Part shown: positions 25,140 through 33,604 of the stretch, piece by piece
Numbering within the stretch: the first letter of the stretch is position 1
Layout: the number at the start of each line of letters is the position of its first letter
Source: Escherichia coli
GTDB lineage: Bacteria; Pseudomonadota; Gammaproteobacteria; Enterobacterales; Enterobacteriaceae
DNA: 64,000 nt
Direction: 5' to 3' (one strand)
Assembly (NCBI RefSeq): GCF_024223415.1
Contig: NZ_CP100500.1
Translations under genes and position numbers: made by a program
Notes under the pieces: model-generated
The model's input: the letters and a program-made list of their open reading frames with translations, nothing else
Database searches by the model: none
Told to the model about the DNA's origin: nothing

Positions 25140-25274
25140 GTTATTTACCTTACTTTACGCGCGCGTAACTCTGGCAGCATCACTGCAGGATAGCGGTCAA
25201 TTTACCTCCTCAAACGCAACGCAAACCTAGAACGGCTTCGGCCAACTATTAATCAATACATGCCAGGTTTTACT

Positions 25275-27425
25275 ATGGATACGAAAAAACTATTCAAGCA
25301 CATACCCTGGGTGATTCTCGGAATCATCGGTGCATTCTGCCTCGCGGTAGTTGCATTACGTCGGGGGGAGCACGTCAGCGCCCTGTGGATCGTGGTCGCC
25401 TCTGTGTCGGTGTATCTGGTGGCGTATCGCTACTACAGTTTGTATATCGCCCAGAAGGTGATGAAACTCGACCCCACGCGCGCGACGCCTGCGGTTATTA
25501 ACAACGACGGTCTGAACTACGTTCCGACCAACCGTTACGTGTTGTTTGGTCACCACTTCGCCGCTATCGCCGGTGCTGGTCCGCTGGTTGGTCCGGTTCT
25601 CGCCGCGCAGATGGGCTATCTGCCTGGCACGCTGTGGCTGCTGGCGGGGGTAGTGCTGGCCGGTGCGGTACAGGACTTTATGGTGCTGTTTATCTCCTCT
25701 CGCCGTAACGGCGCATCTCTCGGTGAGATGATCAAAGAAGAGATGGGACCAGTACCGGGGACTATCGCGCTGTTTGGCTGTTTCTTAATCATGATCATCA
25801 TCCTCGCCGTCCTGGCGCTGATTGTGGTTAAAGCCCTGGCCGAAAGTCCGTGGGGTGTCTTCACCGTTTGCTCAACCGTACCGATTGCGCTGTTTATGGG
25901 TATCTACATGCGCTTTATCCGTCCGGGGCGTGTGGGTGAAGTCTCTGTTATTGGTATCGTGCTGCTGGTTGCCTCTATCTACTTCGGTGGCGTGATTGCT
26001 CACGATCCGTACTGGGGTCCGGCACTGACCTTTAAAGACACCACCATTACCTTCGCGCTGATTGGCTATGCGTTTGTTTCCGCGCTGCTGCCGGTGTGGC
26101 TGATCCTCGCACCACGCGACTATCTGGCAACCTTCCTGAAGATCGGCGTTATCGTCGGCCTGGCGCTGGGTATCGTGGTGCTGAACCCGGAACTGAAAAT
26201 GCCTGCGATGACCCAGTACATTGACGGTACTGGCCCGCTGTGGAAAGGCGCTCTGTTCCCGTTCCTGTTCATCACCATCGCCTGTGGTGCGGTATCTGGC
26301 TTCCACGCGCTGATCTCTTCCGGTACGACGCCGAAACTGCTGGCTAACGAAACCGACGCGCGTTTCATTGGCTACGGCGCAATGCTGATGGAGTCCTTCG
26401 TGGCGATTATGGCGCTGGTTGCAGCGTCCATCATCGAACCGGATCTTTACTTCGCGATGAACACCCCGCCTGCTGGCCTTGGCATCACCATGCCTAACCT
26501 GCATGAAATGGGTGGCGAGAACGCGCCGATCATCATGGCGCAGCTGAAAGACGTTACCGCACACGCGGCAGCGACCGTCAGCTCCTGGGGCTTCGTGATT
26601 TCGCCAGAGCAGATCCTGCAAACCGCGAAAGACATTGGTGAGCCTTCTGTCCTGAACCGTGCAGGTGGTGCACCAACGCTGGCGGTAGGTATCGCTCACG
26701 TGTTCCACAAAGTGCTGCCGATGGCTGACATGGGCTTCTGGTATCACTTCGGTATTCTGTTCGAAGCCCTGTTCATCCTGACCGCGCTGGATGCGGGTAC
26801 CCGTTCTGGCCGCTTTATGCTGCAAGACCTGCTGGGTAACTTCATCCCGTTCCTGAAAAAAACCGACTCTCTGGTTGCTGGTATCATCGGTACTGCGGGC
26901 TGTGTGGGTCTGTGGGGCTACCTGCTGTATCAGGGCGTTGTCGATCCGCTGGGCGGCGTTAAGAGCCTGTGGCCGCTGTTCGGTATCTCCAACCAGATGC
27001 TGGCAGCCGTAGCGCTGGTACTGGGCACCGTTGTGCTGATTAAGATGAAGCGCACCCAATACATCTGGGTAACTGTTGTTCCGGCTGTATGGCTGCTTAT
27101 CTGCACCACCTGGGCGCTGGGCCTGAAACTGTTCAGCACCAACCCGCAGATGGAAGGCTTCTTCTACATGGCAAGCCAGTACAAAGAGAAGATTGCTAAC
27201 GGTACTGACCTGACGGCACAGCAGATTGCCAACATGAACCACATCGTTGTGAACAACTACACCAACGCGGGCCTGAGTATTCTGTTCCTGATTGTGGTGT
27301 ACAGCATCATCTTCTACGGTTTCAAAACCTGGCTTGCGGTGCGTAACAGCGACAAACGTACTGACAAAGAAACACCGTACGTTCCAATCCCGGAAGGCGG
27401 CGTGAAGATCTCTTCGCACCACTAA
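25275..27425 (+). CDS. btsT: Pyruvate/H+ symporter BtsT (CstA family)
   Basis: 716-aa polytopic membrane protein; start at ATG 25275 (MDTKKLFKHIPW) inside the 721-aa track ORF. Confidence 0.9.
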   Translation: MDTKKLFKHIPWVILGIIGAFCLAVVALRRGEHVSALWIVVASVSVYLVAYRYYSLYIAQKVMKLDPTRATPAVINNDGLNYVPTNRYVLFGHHFAAIAGAGPLVGPVLAAQMGYLPGTLWLLAGVVLAGAVQDFMVLFISSRRNGASLGEMIKEEMGPVPGTIALFGCFLIMIIILAVLALIVVKALAESPWGVFTVCSTVPIALFMGIYMRFIRPGRVGEVSVIGIVLLVASIYFGGVIAHDPYWGPALTFKDTTITFALIGYAFVSALLPVWLILAPRDYLATFLKIGVIVGLALGIVVLNPELKMPAMTQYIDGTGPLWKGALFPFLFITIACGAVSGFHALISSGTTPKLLANETDARFIGYGAMLMESFVAIMALVAASIIEPDLYFAMNTPPAGLGITMPNLHEMGGENAPIIMAQLKDVTAHAAATVSSWGFVISPEQILQTAKDIGEPSVLNRAGGAPTLAVGIAHVFHKVLPMADMGFWYHFGILFEALFILTALDAGTRSGRFMLQDLLGNFIPFLKKTDSLVAGIIGTAGCVGLWGYLLYQGVVDPLGGVKSLWPLFGISNQMLAAVALVLGTVVLIKMKRTQYIWVTVVPAVWLLICTTWALGLKLFSTNPQMEGFFYMASQYKEKIANGTDLTAQQIANMNHIVVNNYTNAGLSILFLIVVYSIIFYGFKTWLAVRNSDKRTDKETPYVPIPEGGVKISSHH

Positions 27426-27433
27426 CCGTGTTT

Positions 27434-27461
27434 AGCCCCGCTTCGGCGGGGCTTTGTTCTT
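27434..27461 (+). terminator. Intrinsic terminator after btsT
   Basis: agccccgc-ttcg-gcggggct followed by ttgttctt, directly after the btsT stop and 14 bp before yjiX. Confidence 0.6.
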
Positions 27462-27474
27462 ATCAGAGTGAACT

Positions 27475-27678
27475 ATGTTTGGTAACTTAGGACAGGCAAA
27501 AAAATATCTCGGCCAGGCGGCGAAGATGTTGATTGGCATTCCAGACTACGACAACTACGTCGAGCATATGAAGACCAACCATCCCGACAAGCCGTACATG
27601 AGCTATGAAGAATTCTTCCGCGAACGCCAGAACGCGCGCTACGGCGGCGATGGTAAAGGCGGTATGCGCTGTTGTTAA
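27475..27678 (+). CDS. yjiX: CstA-associated small protein YjiX (DUF466)
   Basis: 67-aa ORF ending [11 protein letters not shown]; immediately downstream of btsT. Confidence 0.85.
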
Positions 27679-27688
27679 TGGAGAGAGC

Positions 27689-28645
27689 ATGAACCCGATT
27701 GCAGTTACCCTACTCACCGGTTTTTTAGGCGCGGGCAAAACCACCCTGCTGCGCCATATTCTTAATGAACAACACGGCTACAAGATTGCCGTGATTGAAA
27801 ACGAATTCGGCGAAGTCTCCGTTGATGATCAACTGATTGGCGACCGCGCCACGCAGATCAAAACGCTGACCAACGGCTGCATCTGCTGTTCGCGCTCCAA
27901 CGAGCTGGAAGACGCACTACTCGACCTGCTGGATAATCTCGATAAGGGCAATATTCAGTTCGATCGTCTGGTCATTGAATGCACCGGCATGGCCGATCCC
28001 GGCCCGATTATTCAGACCTTTTTCTCCCATGAGATTTTATGCCAGCGTTACCTGCTGGACGGCGTGATTGCGCTGGTGGATGCGGTACATGCCGATGAGC
28101 AGATGAACCAGTTCACCATCGCCCAGTCCCAGGTTGGCTACGCCGACCGTATTCTGCTGACGAAAACCGACGTCGCAGGCGAAGCAGAGAAACTGCTTGA
28201 ACGTCTGGCGCGCATCAACGCCCGTGCACCGGTCTACACCGTCACCCACGGCGACATCGACCTGGGTCTGCTGTTCAACACCAACGGTTTTATGCTGGAA
28301 GAGAATGTCGTCAGCACCAAACCGCGTTTCCACTTTATCGCGGACAAACAAAACGATATTTCGTCGATTGTGGTGGAACTGGATTACCCGGTAGATATCA
28401 GCGAAGTTTCCCGGGTGATGGAAAACCTGCTGCTGGAATCGGCAGATAAACTACTGCGTTACAAAGGGATGCTATGGATTGACGGCGAACCTAACCGCCT
28501 GCTGTTCCAGGGCGTCCAGCGCCTCTACAGCGCCGACTGGGACCGCCCGTGGGGCGATGAGAAACCGCATAGCACGATGGTGTTTATCGGGATTCAGCTG
28601 CCGGAGGATGAGATTCGGGCGGCGTTTGCGGGGTTGAGGAAGTAA
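27689..28645 (+). CDS. yjiA: CobW/ZNG1-family metal-chaperone GTPase
   Basis: P-loop LTGFLGAGKTTLL; CICC motif; start at ATG 27689 (MNPIAVTLL) rather than the upstream in-frame start that overlaps yjiX. Confidence 0.9.
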   Translation: MNPIAVTLLTGFLGAGKTTLLRHILNEQHGYKIAVIENEFGEVSVDDQLIGDRATQIKTLTNGCICCSRSNELEDALLDLLDNLDKGNIQFDRLVIECTGMADPGPIIQTFFSHEILCQRYLLDGVIALVDAVHADEQMNQFTIAQSQVGYADRILLTKTDVAGEAEKLLERLARINARAPVYTVTHGDIDLGLLFNTNGFMLEENVVSTKPRFHFIADKQNDISSIVVELDYPVDISEVSRVMENLLLESADKLLRYKGMLWIDGEPNRLLFQGVQRLYSADWDRPWGDEKPHSTMVFIGIQLPEDEIRAAFAGLRK

Positions 28646-28678
28646 TTTTGGATGATGGCCGCCATGTGGCGGCCTGAA

Positions 28679-28981
28679 TTATTTTTTGTTCTGATCGCGC
28701 AGCATCGCTTCACGTAAAATTGCGTTCAGGCGAGTTTGATAGCCTTTACCAGGTCGCTTCAGCCATTCCATCACATCAGCATCAATACGCACCGAAGCCT
28801 GGGTTTTCAATGGCCGATAAAACTTACCGCGTTCTGCGTTAGACCATTGCTCATCGCTGGAAGGCGGGATATCACTGTAATCAATATCTTCGTCGAATTT
28901 ATTCGCCAGTGCCTTCAGTTCGGCCTCATGCTGCACATCGAGTGTAGAGGGTGTCCCTCGTTTATGTTTAACCATGCTCAT
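28679..28981 (-). CDS. brnA: BrnA-like antitoxin (DUF4415/COG3514)
   Basis: C-terminal VRIDADVMEWLKRPGKGYQTRLNAILREAM is the hallmark BrnA motif; start at internal ATG (MSMVKHKRG) overlapping the brnT 3' end by 14 nt. Confidence 0.7.
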   Translation of the reverse strand: MSMVKHKRGTPSTLDVQHEAELKALANKFDEDIDYSDIPPSSDEQWSNAERGKFYRPLKTQASVRIDADVMEWLKRPGKGYQTRLNAILREAMLRDQNKK

Positions 28982-29255
28982 AGCGACTCCTCTCTTTACG
29001 ATCTGCTTTTCGTGCACTGATGATTCGAATAATTTCATTTCCGCTTTCGAAACGGATGGTATGCGCAACCAGAATAACCACGATACCGTGAACCAGGCCG
29101 ATAGTCTGCCAGCGATACTCACCGTTTTCTATGCGATCTTGCTGTGACAAATGTTGTGGATCATCAAACACTAACACCGCATCTTCAAAGCGGATGCCAT
29201 GTTTCACCCGATTACTTTTGGCCTTGTTTGCATCCCATTCAAACTCCATTGGCAT
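28968..29255 (-). CDS. brnT: BrnT-like toxin (DUF497/COG2929, RelE-fold ribonuclease)
   Basis: N-terminus ...MEFEWDANKAKSNRVKHGIRFEDAVLVFDD is the typical BrnT signature; toxin gene lies upstream of the antitoxin as in brnTA operons; start ambiguous among three nearby ATG (29249/29255/29264). Confidence 0.7.
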   Translation of the reverse strand: MPMEFEWDANKAKSNRVKHGIRFEDAVLVFDDPQHLSQQDRIENGEYRWQTIGLVHGIVVILVAHTIRFESGNEIIRIISARKADRKERSRYEHG

Positions 29256-29451
29256 AGTTGCCATCCCTAATTGTATATACAAAAATGTATCTACAATTAT
29301 TCTGCAATTATAGCGTTGATGTTGGAAATAGCATCACGTTTTGGATAATCAACCATGAAATTGACAATGAGTAAGTTGGACTTGATTCATCCAATAGAAT
29401 TTCTCGCCTGACATGGCACACTAAACACCTCGCTGTCGTTAAGGGATTACC

Positions 29452-30618
29452 GTGAAAAACTATAAAGTTATTACCCCGCTTTTTCCTACCTATGCACAGG
29501 TTAAAGCTATGATGAAAGCCGTCTCAGGCTATTCCCTGAAAGCGGTACGCAATATGATTACCGCCATTCGCGATCAAACCGGTACGCCGCAAAAACCCGT
29601 TGACTGGTCGGAACCTGACCTGTGGATCAGCGAACGCTTAACGGGCGAAGATGCCGACATCGCCCGTCGTATTTGGGATACAGATAATCACATATTGAAC
29701 CCGCGCCACAGCTACGGCTGCTACTTATTCCTCAACTATCCCCAGTTTGAGCTGATGGAAAGCACGCCAGATGATACCTGGCAGCCCACCTCGCGCGGGC
29801 AAAAATTCCTGCAAGATGACGAAAAAACGCTGCGTTCACTGGATGACCAGGAAGGCATTCTGCAACTGCTTGAGCTGCTGGCTGGCCGGGAAATGTCGCG
29901 CCGCGCCGATTTATTGCCGGAATGGCAGGCCTTTTTGCATCAGCATTCGAAATTCGCGTCTGCAAGTTCAGTGAAAAGCACGCTCTACTCCCGTCTCTAT
30001 AACCTTATTGACCGTGGCATGGTTACTCGCGAAGGTATGAGCTATTGCATCACCGATACCGGACGCGCCTGGCTTGGAAAAGCGTTGCCAGCACGAAAAA
30101 GCGATCCGCGTAAAGAGCTGTTGGAAGCGGTGAAACGCTACAACGAGCAGCAAAAAGAGCTGCTGCGCGAACAAATCAGCACGATGAACCCGTACAAATT
30201 TGAACAACTGGTCGGTCAATTACTGGAAGCAATGGGCTACGAGCAGGTCGAAGTGACCAAAGCCTCAGGCGATAAAGGTGTGGACGTGATTGGTCAGGTG
30301 CAGGTCGGCATCACCACTATTACCGAAGTGGTGCAGGTCAAAAGAATGCAGAACACCATCACTCGACCGTATATCGACCAGTTGCGCGGAGCGTTGCCTT
30401 ACCACAAAGCCATTCGCGGTACGCTCATCACCACCGGGAAATTTGCGGCGAAATGTGCAGAAGCGGCGCTCTTTCCGGGGGCAGCGCCCATTACGCTTAT
30501 CGACGGCGATCGCTTACTGGAACTGTTAATCGAAAATAACGTCGGCATTCGCCGCAGCAATGCAGTGGAATTGCTGGATGTAGATTTGCAGTTGTTTGAT
30601 GAGCTGGAGATGGATTAA
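29452..30618 (+). CDS. Mrr-family (type IV-like) restriction endonuclease with extended N-terminal region
   Basis: C-terminal Mrr_cat-like core (GDKGVDVIG...TEVVQVKR, D...QxK variant); GTG start preceded by aaggga; ends 63 bp before hsdM on the same strand. Confidence 0.75.
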   Translation: MKNYKVITPLFPTYAQVKAMMKAVSGYSLKAVRNMITAIRDQTGTPQKPVDWSEPDLWISERLTGEDADIARRIWDTDNHILNPRHSYGCYLFLNYPQFELMESTPDDTWQPTSRGQKFLQDDEKTLRSLDDQEGILQLLELLAGREMSRRADLLPEWQAFLHQHSKFASASSVKSTLYSRLYNLIDRGMVTREGMSYCITDTGRAWLGKALPARKSDPRKELLEAVKRYNEQQKELLREQISTMNPYKFEQLVGQLLEAMGYEQVEVTKASGDKGVDVIGQVQVGITTITEVVQVKRMQNTITRPYIDQLRGALPYHKAIRGTLITTGKFAAKCAEAALFPGAAPITLIDGDRLLELLIENNVGIRRSNAVELLDVDLQLFDELEMD

Positions 30619-30681
30619 AGGGCGAAATCTGCCGTCTCTACCATTACAATAGCGACCCAATTTATCTGAACAGAGTTCATC

Positions 30682-32301
30682 ATGGCCAAAGCACCAACTA
30701 AAAAAGCCAAAGCAAAGAAAGGCTTTGAAGAAACATTATGGGATACTGCAAACCAACTTCGCGGTAGCGTTGAGTCCTCCGAATACAAGCACGTGGTGTT
30801 AAGCCTCGTGTTCCTGAAATTCATCAGCGATAAGTTTGAAGCACGCCGCAAAAAAATGATTGCCGATGGGCAAGCTGACTTCCTTGAGATGGAAGTGTTC
30901 TACCAGCAGGACAACATTTTCTACCTGCCGGAAGAGGCGCGCTGGTCATTTATCAAACAAAATGCCAAACAGGACGATATTGCGGTTCGTATTGACACCG
31001 CCCTCTCGACCATTGAGAAACGTAACCCAACCCTGAAAGGCGCGCTGCCAGACAACTACTTCAGCCGTCAGAATCTGGAAACCAAAAAACTGGCGTCACT
31101 GATTGATACCATCGACAACGTCGAAACGCTGGCACACGAAACTGACGTTGAAACGTTGTCGAAAGAAGACCTGGTCGGACGCGTTTACGAATACTTCCTC
31201 GGTAAGTTTGCCGCAACCGAAGGCAAAGGCGGTGGTGAGTTCTACACGCCCAAATGTGTGGTTACGCTGTTAACTGAAATGCTCGAACCTTTCCAGGGCA
31301 AAATCTATGACCCATGCTGCGGCTCGGCGGGGATGTTCGTGCAGTCGGTGAAGTTTGTCGAGAGCCATCAGGGTAAAAGTCGTGATATCGCGCTGTATGG
31401 TCAGGAACTGACAGCCACGACGTATAAACTGGCAAAAATGAACCTCGCCATTCGCGGCCTTTCAGCAAACCTCGGCGAACGCCCGGCAGACACTTTCTTT
31501 AGCGACCAGCACCCGGACCTGAAAGCCGACTACATTCTGGCGAACCCGCCGTTCAACCTGAAAGACTGGCGTAATGAAGCCGAATTAACCAAAGATCCAC
31601 GTTTTGCTGGTTATCGTATGCCGCCAACCGGTAACGCCAACTACGGCTGGATTTTGCATATGCTCTCCAAGCTGTCGGCTAACGGCACAGCAGGTTTTGT
31701 GCTGGCAAACGGTTCGATGAGTTCTAACACCAGCGGTGAAGGCGAGATCCGTGCGCAGATGATCGAAAATGATCTGATCGACTGCATGATCGCCCTACCT
31801 GGTCAGTTGTTTTACACCACGCAGATCCCGGTGTGTTTATGGTTTATGACCAAATCGAAGGCTGCCGACCCGGCCAAAGGTTATCGTGATCGTCAGGGCG
31901 AGACGCTGTTTATTGATGCGCGTAACCTCGGCACCATGATTAGCCGCACAACTAAAGAGTTAACGGCGGAAGATATTGCCACCATCGCCGATACCTACCA
32001 TGCATGGCGCAGTACGCCGGAAGAACTGGCTGCACGGATTGCGCGTGGTGACAGCAAGCTGGAAAAATATGAAGACCAGGCAGGCTTCAGCAAAGTTGCG
32101 ACCCTGCAAGATATTAAAGATAACGACTACGTGCTGACGCCGGGCCGCTATGTGGGTGCAGCCGAGCAGGAAGAGGACGGCGTGGCATTTGAGACAAAAA
32201 TGCGGGAGTTGTCGAAGACGTTGTTTGAGCAGATGAAGCAGGCGGAAGAACTGGATTGTGCGATTCGCCAGAATCTGGAGGCGCTGGGTTATGGGGAGTA
32301 A
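30682..32301 (+). CDS. hsdM: Type I R-M N6-adenine DNA methyltransferase subunit
   Basis: 539-aa ORF with SAM-binding motif I (DPCCGSAGMF) and catalytic NPPF (ILANPPFNL); N-terminus unlike EcoKI HsdM. Confidence 0.9.
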   Translation: MAKAPTKKAKAKKGFEETLWDTANQLRGSVESSEYKHVVLSLVFLKFISDKFEARRKKMIADGQADFLEMEVFYQQDNIFYLPEEARWSFIKQNAKQDDIAVRIDTALSTIEKRNPTLKGALPDNYFSRQNLETKKLASLIDTIDNVETLAHETDVETLSKEDLVGRVYEYFLGKFAATEGKGGGEFYTPKCVVTLLTEMLEPFQGKIYDPCCGSAGMFVQSVKFVESHQGKSRDIALYGQELTATTYKLAKMNLAIRGLSANLGERPADTFFSDQHPDLKADYILANPPFNLKDWRNEAELTKDPRFAGYRMPPTGNANYGWILHMLSKLSANGTAGFVLANGSMSSNTSGEGEIRAQMIENDLIDCMIALPGQLFYTTQIPVCLWFMTKSKAADPAKGYRDRQGETLFIDARNLGTMISRTTKELTAEDIATIADTYHAWRSTPEELAARIARGDSKLEKYEDQAGFSKVATLQDIKDNDYVLTPGRYVGAAEQEEDGVAFETKMRELSKTLFEQMKQAEELDCAIRQNLEALGYGE

Positions 32302-33604
32302 TGCTATTACAACAATAATTGGTGAACACTTGCTGATTAGAAATGGCAAATCTTCGCCATCAAGAGCCATAACAGGAGAATATCCTGTTTATGGTTCAAA
32401 TGGAATAATAGGTTATTCAGATGAATATAACGCTAATGAAAATACAATAATTATCGGGCGTGTTGGGTCATATTGTGGTTCAGTTTATATTTCCGATAAA
32501 AAATGTTGGGTCACTGATAATGCAATAATTGGAACCGCAAAGAATGAAAATGAAAGTCATTTTTGGTTCTATCTTTTAAAAAAAATAGATTTGAACAATT
32601 ATAGTACTGGTTCAGGCCAACCTCTCATTAACCAAACAATAATTAATACAATATCCGTTACCATTCCTAAGCTCAGTGAGAAAAGAGTAGCCATTGGACA
32701 TTTTTTACGCCACTTTGATCAAAAGATAAATTTATCTCTTAATATCAATCAATCCTTGGAACAAATGTCCCAAACCTTGTTCAAATCCTGGTTTGTGGAT
32801 TTCGATCCGGTGATTGATAACGCGCTGGACGCGGGAAACCCAATCCCGGAAGCGATGCAATCTCGCGCAGAACTGCGTCAAAAAGTACGTAATAGTGCAG
32901 ATTTTAAACCGCTTCTAGCGGAAATCCGCTCGCTTTTCCCAAGTGAATTTGAAGAAACCGAACCAGGATGGTTACCTAAGGGCTGGAAACATGGTAATTT
33001 AAATGATGTCACGAAGATCTTAAGTGGGTTTGCTTTTAAGAGTAAAGACTTTGGTGATGAAGGTAAAAGTGTCATAAAAATAAAGAACATTAATATCGAT
33101 AAAACAATTGATATAGATCATACTCAAAAAATTTCTGATATCGTAGCCAAAGACGTAAAGCGTTTTCAATTATTTGATGCCGATATTTTGATGGCTATGA
33201 CTGGTGCCACGGTCGGTAAATTTGGAATATTAGCATCAAAAAATCATGAAGAATATTATCTTAACCAACGAGTTGCGAAGTTTGAAACAGATAAAAAAGC
33301 TTACCTTTATTGTATATTGAATCAAGAAAGTACCGAAAGATTTATAATCAATACAGCTCAGGGCAGTGCACAACCAAATATCAGTGCTAAAGATATTTTA
33401 AGTATTCCACTCACACTACCATCAAACGAAATAATAACTATATTCAATACATTTGTTGATCCTTTATTCTACAGAATGATAGCGAATACAAAAGTTAGTT
33501 TAAGTCTAACAGAACTCCGCGACACCTTGCTCCCAAAACTCATCTCCGGCGAGCTCTCCCTGGAAGATCTTCCGGATCTCAGCACCAATACAGAAGCCGC
33601 ATAA
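32291..33604 (+). CDS. hsdS: Type I R-M specificity subunit
   Basis: Two AT-rich variable target-recognition regions separated by a conserved central region (SLEQMSQTLFKSWFVDFDP) plus conserved C-terminal helix (LTELRDTLLPKLISGEL); ATG at 32291 overlaps the hsdM 3' end. Confidence 0.85.
   Translation: MGSNAITTIIGEHLLIRNGKSSPSRAITGEYPVYGSNGIIGYSDEYNANENTIIIGRVGSYCGSVYISDKKCWVTDNAIIGTAKNENESHFWFYLLKKIDLNNYSTGSGQPLINQTIINTISVTIPKLSEKRVAIGHFLRHFDQKINLSLNINQSLEQMSQTLFKSWFVDFDPVIDNALDAGNPIPEAMQSRAELRQKVRNSADFKPLLAEIRSLFPSEFEETEPGWLPKGWKHGNLNDVTKILSGFAFKSKDFGDEGKSVIKIKNINIDKTIDIDHTQKISDIVAKDVKRFQLFDADILMAMTGATVGKFGILASKNHEEYYLNQRVAKFETDKKAYLYCILNQESTERFIINTAQGSAQPNISAKDILSIPLTLPSNEIITIFNTFVDPLFYRMIANTKVSLSLTELRDTLLPKLISGELSLEDLPDLSTNTEAA

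Follow-up and report, generated by a model that had tools for sequence, protein, structure and literature searches.

A probably leaky intrinsic terminator between btsT and yjiX in the pyruvate-responsive btsT-yjiX-yjiA locus of Escherichia coli

The DNA analysed here, referred to as the window, is a stretch of 64,000 nucleotides of the Escherichia coli contig NZ_CP100500.1 (assembly GCF_024223415.1), in which btsT, yjiX and yjiA follow one another on the same strand (Table 1). A 1-kb stretch around the btsT-yjiX spacer has a match of at least 95% identity in 5,380 of 5,426 complete E. coli genomes, several of them at 100%, and positions 27301-27700 are identical to K-12 MG1655. The first gene, btsT, was formerly called yjiY, and the system that activates it, BtsSR, is the former YehUT. 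BtsT matches the CstA family of NCBIfam (E = 5.6e-304); its open reading frame opens at 25260, the annotated start lies at 25275 and the stop codon is a TAA (27423-27425). YjiX is 73% identical to YbdD. It ends in the residues RCC and scores below threshold against the NCBIfam 'KCU-star family selenoprotein' model (E = 5e-17, 61.9 bits with a cutoff of 85), which suggests that it is a cysteine-containing relative of this selenoprotein family. The AGAG upstream of the yjiX ATG presumably acts as its Shine-Dalgarno sequence, and relatives carry CAGGA or GGAG in its place. Past yjiA, a terminator-like hairpin found by pattern scan probably marks the end of the operon in this strain. The K-12 sequence 3' of yjiA differs from that of the window, and the Term-seq 3' end of yjiA has been mapped there to 4587866(-) (Adams 2021, PMC7815308).

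The flanks of the three genes hold further features. Between tsr and btsT lies an ORF for the hypothetical protein WP_000934391.1, which has no NCBIfam or Pfam match and is absent from K-12, where the tsr-btsT gap measures 377 bp as against ~1,060 bp here. On the other side of yjiA (~28679-33000), comparison with an annotated genome identifies a BrnT/BrnA toxin-antitoxin pair, a restriction endonuclease and a type I restriction-modification system. This region varies from strain to strain, its place in K-12 being taken by mrr and hsdR.

Table 1. Features of the btsT-yjiX-yjiA locus; positions are those of the window unless another locus is named.
Feature	Position	Strand	Description and basis
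Hypothetical protein WP_000934391.1	24440-24982	+	180-aa ORF between tsr and btsT
btsT (yjiY) CDS	25275-27425	+	pyruvate/H+ symporter; RefSeq annotation of identical strains and ORF list
btsT-yjiX spacer	27426-27474		49 nt
Terminator hairpin	27434-27453	+	5' arm 27434-27441 AGCCCCGC; UUCG loop (TTCG) 27442-27445; 3' arm 27446-27453 GCGGGGCT
Interrupted U-run	27454-27463	+	TTGTTCTTAT
Weak Shine-Dalgarno-like AGAG	27465-27468	+	6 nt before the yjiX ATG; read from sequence
yjiX	27475-27678	+	67-aa small protein of the YbdD/YjiX family; PF04328 (Pfam Sel_put), E = 3e-27
yjiA	27689-28645	+	COG0523/CobW-type GTPase, start 10 nt past the yjiX stop codon; family search
Terminator-like hairpin after yjiA	28657-28684	+	GGCCGCC-ATGT-GGCGGCC plus TGAATTATTT; pattern scan only
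Long spacer, first example	1531-1647 of locus L083		long allele of the btsT-yjiX spacer
Long spacer, second example	1531-1660 of locus L084		long allele of the btsT-yjiX spacer

The spacer between btsT and yjiX had caught the eye of the initial annotation, whose interval spans the whole 49 nt. The GC-rich 8-bp stem with tetraloop and T-run that it described directly behind the btsT stop is indeed present: the hairpin has eight base pairs, seven of them G-C, and a 4-nt TTCG loop. Its stem is separated by 8 nt from the stop codon and by 21 nt from the yjiX ATG; the distance of 14 bp first given for the terminator holds only when its end is set at 27460, that is, when the first seven bases of the tail are included. 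The closing G-C pair is followed by TTTGTTCTTAT, with six U in the first eight nucleotides, and the run is interrupted (UUUGUUCUU) by a G and a C. Both elements that define an intrinsic terminator are thus found, a G-C-rich stem-loop on the transcribed strand and a U-rich tract directly 3' of it. Folded alone the hairpin reaches -17.0 kcal/mol, and its pairs form with a probability of ~1.0 in each of five flanking contexts folded. On either strand of the 64-kb window it is the sole hairpin with at least eight pairs, at least seven of them G-C, and a T-run, and dinucleotide shuffles contain a mean of 0.6 such hairpins per 64-kb window. One hairpin of this kind somewhere in 64 kb is unremarkable; the chance of one in this particular 49-nt gap is ~2e-4, and its placement between btsT and yjiX is non-random. 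As a separate observation, in a read-through RNA (27455-27501) base pairing is predicted between the U-run segment UUGUUCU and the AGGACAG of yjiX codons 7-9. It would form a small stem-loop of low energy that stands beside the terminator hairpin and encloses the weak Shine-Dalgarno sequence and the AUG.

The initial annotation had proposed Term-seq or RNA-seq coverage as a check, and published Term-seq data give a 3' end at this site. A Term-seq survey in eLife lists a dominant 3' end at MG1655 position 4589097(-) with 59,788 reads, which it assigns to yjiY as its primary 3' end (Adams 2021, PMC7815308, supplementary file 1); the entry stands on the first tab of the file, which from its place there corresponds to LB at OD 0.4. 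The flanking sequence given for this end is exactly the window hairpin. Placed by string match and by the K-12 coordinates of btsT (4589129-4591279), the end falls on T27457, so that the RNA finishes in ...GCGGGGCU-UUGU, 4 nt past the stem. With this end inside the U-run, the hairpin behaves as a terminator in vivo; it is a real terminator, of the intrinsic type by its sequence, that has already been mapped experimentally. A second supplementary file of the same study reports no bicyclomycin-sensitive (Rho-dependent) region for yjiY or yjiX on the btsT strand, which amounts to absence of evidence only. Term-seq by itself does not separate termination from exonucleolytic trimming of 3' ends, and the 4 nt beyond the stem, fewer than the usual 7-9 nt, suggest some trimming. 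We infer that the end at 27457 is made by termination rather than by processing. The call of a 'strong' intrinsic terminator is upheld as far as the terminator goes, by the 3' end at 27457, and is not upheld for its strength: the U-run is interrupted, and the co-regulation of yjiX with btsT described below argues for a leak.

The junction has kept its architecture across the Enterobacterales. In a comparative set of 80 loci, one genome per species, with the species related and the counts consequently not independent, the order btsT-yjiX-yjiA is found in 80 of 80. Spacers range from 48 to 319 nt, and few are shorter than the E. coli form. At a cutoff of -8 kcal/mol, 71 of the 80 spacers contain a closed hairpin that leads into a T-rich tail; in 64 it is at -15 kcal/mol or better, compared with 4.6% of dinucleotide-shuffled spacers. 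The distance from the end of the stem to the yjiX ATG is 16-27 nt in 46 species. These hairpins are not homologous throughout and fall into three types, namely the GCCCCGC type of the window, a REP-derived type (Klebsiella, Enterobacter, Salmonella, Citrobacter and Kluyvera) and a long A-T-rich type (Pectobacterium, Serratia, Brenneria and Xenorhabdus). The GCCCCGC/GCGGGGC stem is spread over many genera (16 species) and mostly stands 7-18 nt past the btsT stop codon, with ten different loops and compensatory G-C to A-T changes at pairs 2 and 7. Because the loops vary and the changes compensate one another, it is the structure and not the sequence that is maintained.

Within E. coli the spacer exists as two alleles, which together account for the 5,380 genomes with the locus. 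The short 49-nt spacer of K-12 and of the window is present in 4,203 genomes (77%) and a long spacer of 117-130 nt, found for example in NC101, in 1,177 (22%). The long allele contains one or two REP elements, which match a median of 28 places per genome, and closes with the hairpin AGCCCGG-ACCTT-CCGGGCT and the tail TTACGCAT, ending 21 nt before the ATG. In the comparison of the last hairpins, the long allele reaches -12.2 kcal/mol against -15.4 kcal/mol for the short one and has three U in the first eight tail positions against six. With its weaker stem and fewer U, the long allele is predicted to terminate less well than the short. The short spacer matches a median of one place per genome and so lacks the multi-copy character of REP/BIME elements; a REP/BIME identity of the window hairpin is ruled out, given that it is single-copy, unrelated to REP and followed by a proper U-run. 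The long-allele E. coli genomes (22%), many relatives and the cstA-ybdD spacer do have REP hairpins at the equivalent position, where they may play the same role. The malE-malF spacer is the familiar case of an intercistronic region bearing REP/BIME elements.

The paralogous pair cstA-ybdD offers a parallel. In K-12 its spacer measures 182 nt (L085 3001-3182) and holds boxC-like and REP hairpins without a U-run, and a Term-seq 3' end is reported at 632098(+), 84 nt upstream of ybdD (Adams 2021, PMC7815308). A structured 3' end between a transporter gene and a small PF04328 gene is common to btsT-yjiX and cstA-ybdD. Pyruvate uptake that depends on CstA reportedly requires YbdD (PMC5847655).

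These comparisons bear on whether the hairpin works mainly as an mRNA stability element. Polymerases would then read through efficiently, and 3' exonucleases would trim the message back to the UUCG hairpin; the btsT mRNA would be protected and the operon would undergo differential decay, as with REP elements. The mapped 3' end only 4 nt beyond the stem is what such trimming could leave, many relatives and the long E. coli allele have at the equivalent place a REP-derived hairpin followed by a poor U-run, and the cstA-ybdD hairpins yield a Term-seq 3' end even though no U-run follows them. In addition, of all genes yjiY shows the strongest reported up-regulation in a mutant of poly(A) polymerase (pcnB), with a log2 change of 4.76 (PMC5389530); poly(A)-dependent turnover of the mRNA with its terminal hairpin may lie behind this, or the effect may be indirect. 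The K-12-type hairpin, however, is a single-copy structure and no REP, its six U in eight nucleotides are typical of working intrinsic terminators, and T-rich tails stand behind the hairpin in most species. Moreover, termination and stabilisation can both hold for one hairpin. Taken as its main function, we consider stabilisation unlikely, and the same judgement applies to differential decay within the operon.

A further possibility is that the terminator is a regulated attenuator, with read-through switched by an alternative fold, by a bound factor or by a ribosome at the btsT stop codon that masks the 5' arm. The stop codon is close to the stem, the GCCCCGC-type hairpin lies 7-18 nt past it in 14 of its 16 species, and condition-dependent read-through is documented at other E. 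coli terminators (Yan 2018). Against this, none of the five contexts folded contains a competing or antiterminator structure, and an Rfam search returned no riboswitch, sRNA or other family, only sub-threshold noise. Across species the distance from stop codon to hairpin runs from 4 to 140 nt, and masking by the ribosome is therefore not a conserved arrangement. Regulated attenuation is highly improbable, and its riboswitch or two-state form is ruled out by the lack of mutually exclusive folds and of an Rfam aptamer match.

How, then, are yjiX and yjiA transcribed? The initial annotation saw no obvious promoter in the gap, and two scans agree. Neither a pattern scan nor one at relaxed stringency of the + strand between 26900 and 27495, an interval that takes in the spacer and the last ~500 nt of btsT, finds a sigma-70-like promoter even at 8 of 12 matches, the scans being confined to the sigma-70-type consensus. 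Synonymous-site variation, measured as third-codon-position entropy in 37 Enterobacteriaceae, does not fall convincingly over the final 200 nt of btsT; dips do occur further upstream in the gene (near 26730, 26965 and 27140) and are left without interpretation because codon bias confounds this measure. The Term-seq survey retained 3' ends upstream of ORFs only where a transcription start had been mapped no more than 200 nt upstream (Adams 2021, PMC7815308). The btsT 3' end lies 18 nt upstream of yjiX and is absent from the resulting 5'-UTR list, which implies that no start was mapped within those 200 nt.

The regulation of the genes points in the same direction. Microarrays of S. Typhi yehU, yehT and yehUT mutants give log2 changes of about -6.5 for btsT (t4582), -4.0 for yjiX (t4581) and -2.3 for yjiA (t4580) (PMC3875573), equivalent without yehUT to drops of ~91-fold, ~16-fold and ~5-fold. 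The spacer hairpin of Salmonella is a different one, of REP type with a weaker U-run, and the S. Typhi data therefore speak for co-regulation of the operon and not for the behaviour of the window hairpin. In K-12, independent-component analysis of RNA-seq data groups yjiY and yjiX (b4353) in the 'Pyruvate' iModulon (BtsR/YpdB/PdhR), co-membership being a correlation, and leaves yjiA outside it (PMC6892915 supplement). A figure list in that work also places 'yjiX' in the MetJ module, although b4353 is tabulated only under 'Pyruvate' (PMC6892915); the MetJ entry probably refers to the paralog ybdD, which lies next to ybdH and ybdL and goes by the same name. Control of yjiX by MetJ was considered and rejected, as the window contains no tandem met box within three mismatches and the best local match reaches 10 of 16.

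A promoter of its own, within the last part of btsT or across the terminator, could in principle supply most of the yjiX-yjiA transcript, with a near-complete terminator insulating two units. The fold-change that shrinks from btsT to yjiA in S. Typhi fits a BtsSR-independent component, and could reflect such extra yjiX-yjiA transcription rather than array background; yjiA is also missing from the 'Pyruvate' iModulon. Genomic SELEX has in addition placed an RpoS-holoenzyme site inside yjiY, but in mid-gene, ~1.2 kb upstream of the btsT stop, a position relative to the gene that we estimate by allowing for the shift in coordinates from one MG1655 sequence version to another. Set against these points are the want of a promoter-like hexamer pair in 26900-27495, of a clear dip in synonymous variation and of a mapped start close upstream, together with the loss of most yjiX expression in Salmonella without BtsSR and its co-variation with btsT in E. 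coli. A separate promoter as the main source is quite improbable; an internal promoter finds no support here and may at most make a minor contribution. Of the two routes that the initial annotation had offered for yjiX-yjiA, read-through or a promoter inside btsT, the first is thereby backed by the S. Typhi and iModulon data, while the second has neither a motif nor an entropy dip to recommend it.

The reading that we favour, and regard as likely, is that of a leaky internal Rho-independent terminator within a btsT-yjiX-yjiA unit, with yjiX and yjiA expressed by read-through. It is preferred because no promoter motif was found and because yjiX is co-regulated with btsT; these are also two marks of a leaky internal terminator, the former coming from a weak test limited to sigma-70 and the latter, the dependence on the upstream regulator, from the literature. 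Transcription would start at the btsT promoter controlled by BtsR and CRP. For the majority of polymerases transcription would end in the U-run, and the product would be a monocistronic btsT mRNA with a very stable C(UUCG)G hairpin at its 3' end; a minority would continue to produce a btsT-yjiX-yjiA message. The terminator itself would be constitutive, and yjiX and yjiA would be regulated by pyruvate/BtsSR like btsT but expressed less highly. We infer that yjiX-yjiA mRNA in E. coli comes mainly from read-through, and the fraction of polymerases that read through is likewise deduced. On the same Term-seq tab, 31,772 reads are listed for the yjiA 3' end and 59,788 for that of btsT, and these counts put an upper bound of roughly one third on read-through, a rough and only indicative figure that assumes equal stability of the two ends and a single promoter.

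The terminator between btsT and yjiX belongs to an ordinary, well-documented class and is already known. Like canonical intrinsic terminators of E. coli it combines a G-C-rich stem-loop and a U-run behind a stop codon with a 3' end in the U-run, and nothing essential sets it apart from them; its U-run is interrupted and the next gene begins 21 nt past the stem. Internal leaky terminators such as those of sdhCDAB-sucABCD, prs-dauA and dapA-bamC (Conway 2014, Yan 2018) are likewise located between co-directional genes, and as at those loci the downstream genes are without an evident promoter and follow the regulation of the upstream gene at a lower level. Among 1,774 mapped E. coli terminators, 264 were found within operons with partial read-through (Conway 2014), and at 75% of termination sites read-through amounts to at least 5%, with ~40% extending into further genes (Yan 2018). 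What is new here is minor, namely the deep conservation of a hairpin at the btsT-yjiX junction despite turnover of its sequence, and the two-allele polymorphism of the spacer in E. coli. More speculatively, the spacer could be a tuned valve whose setting differs by lineage, so that the two E. coli alleles would give heritably different levels of YjiX and YjiA relative to BtsT, and the 8-nt gap between stop codon and stem could tie read-through to how closely the ribosome trails the polymerase; this extension we hold to be doubtful.

The analysis defines the transcription-unit structure of a pyruvate-responsive locus, and implies that the poorly understood small protein YjiX and the GTPase YjiA belong to the BtsSR pyruvate response. 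Deletions or insertions in btsT may be polar, which bears on how they are read and on the assignment of a function to yjiX. A leaky terminator is an ordinary bacterial route to lower expression of downstream genes.
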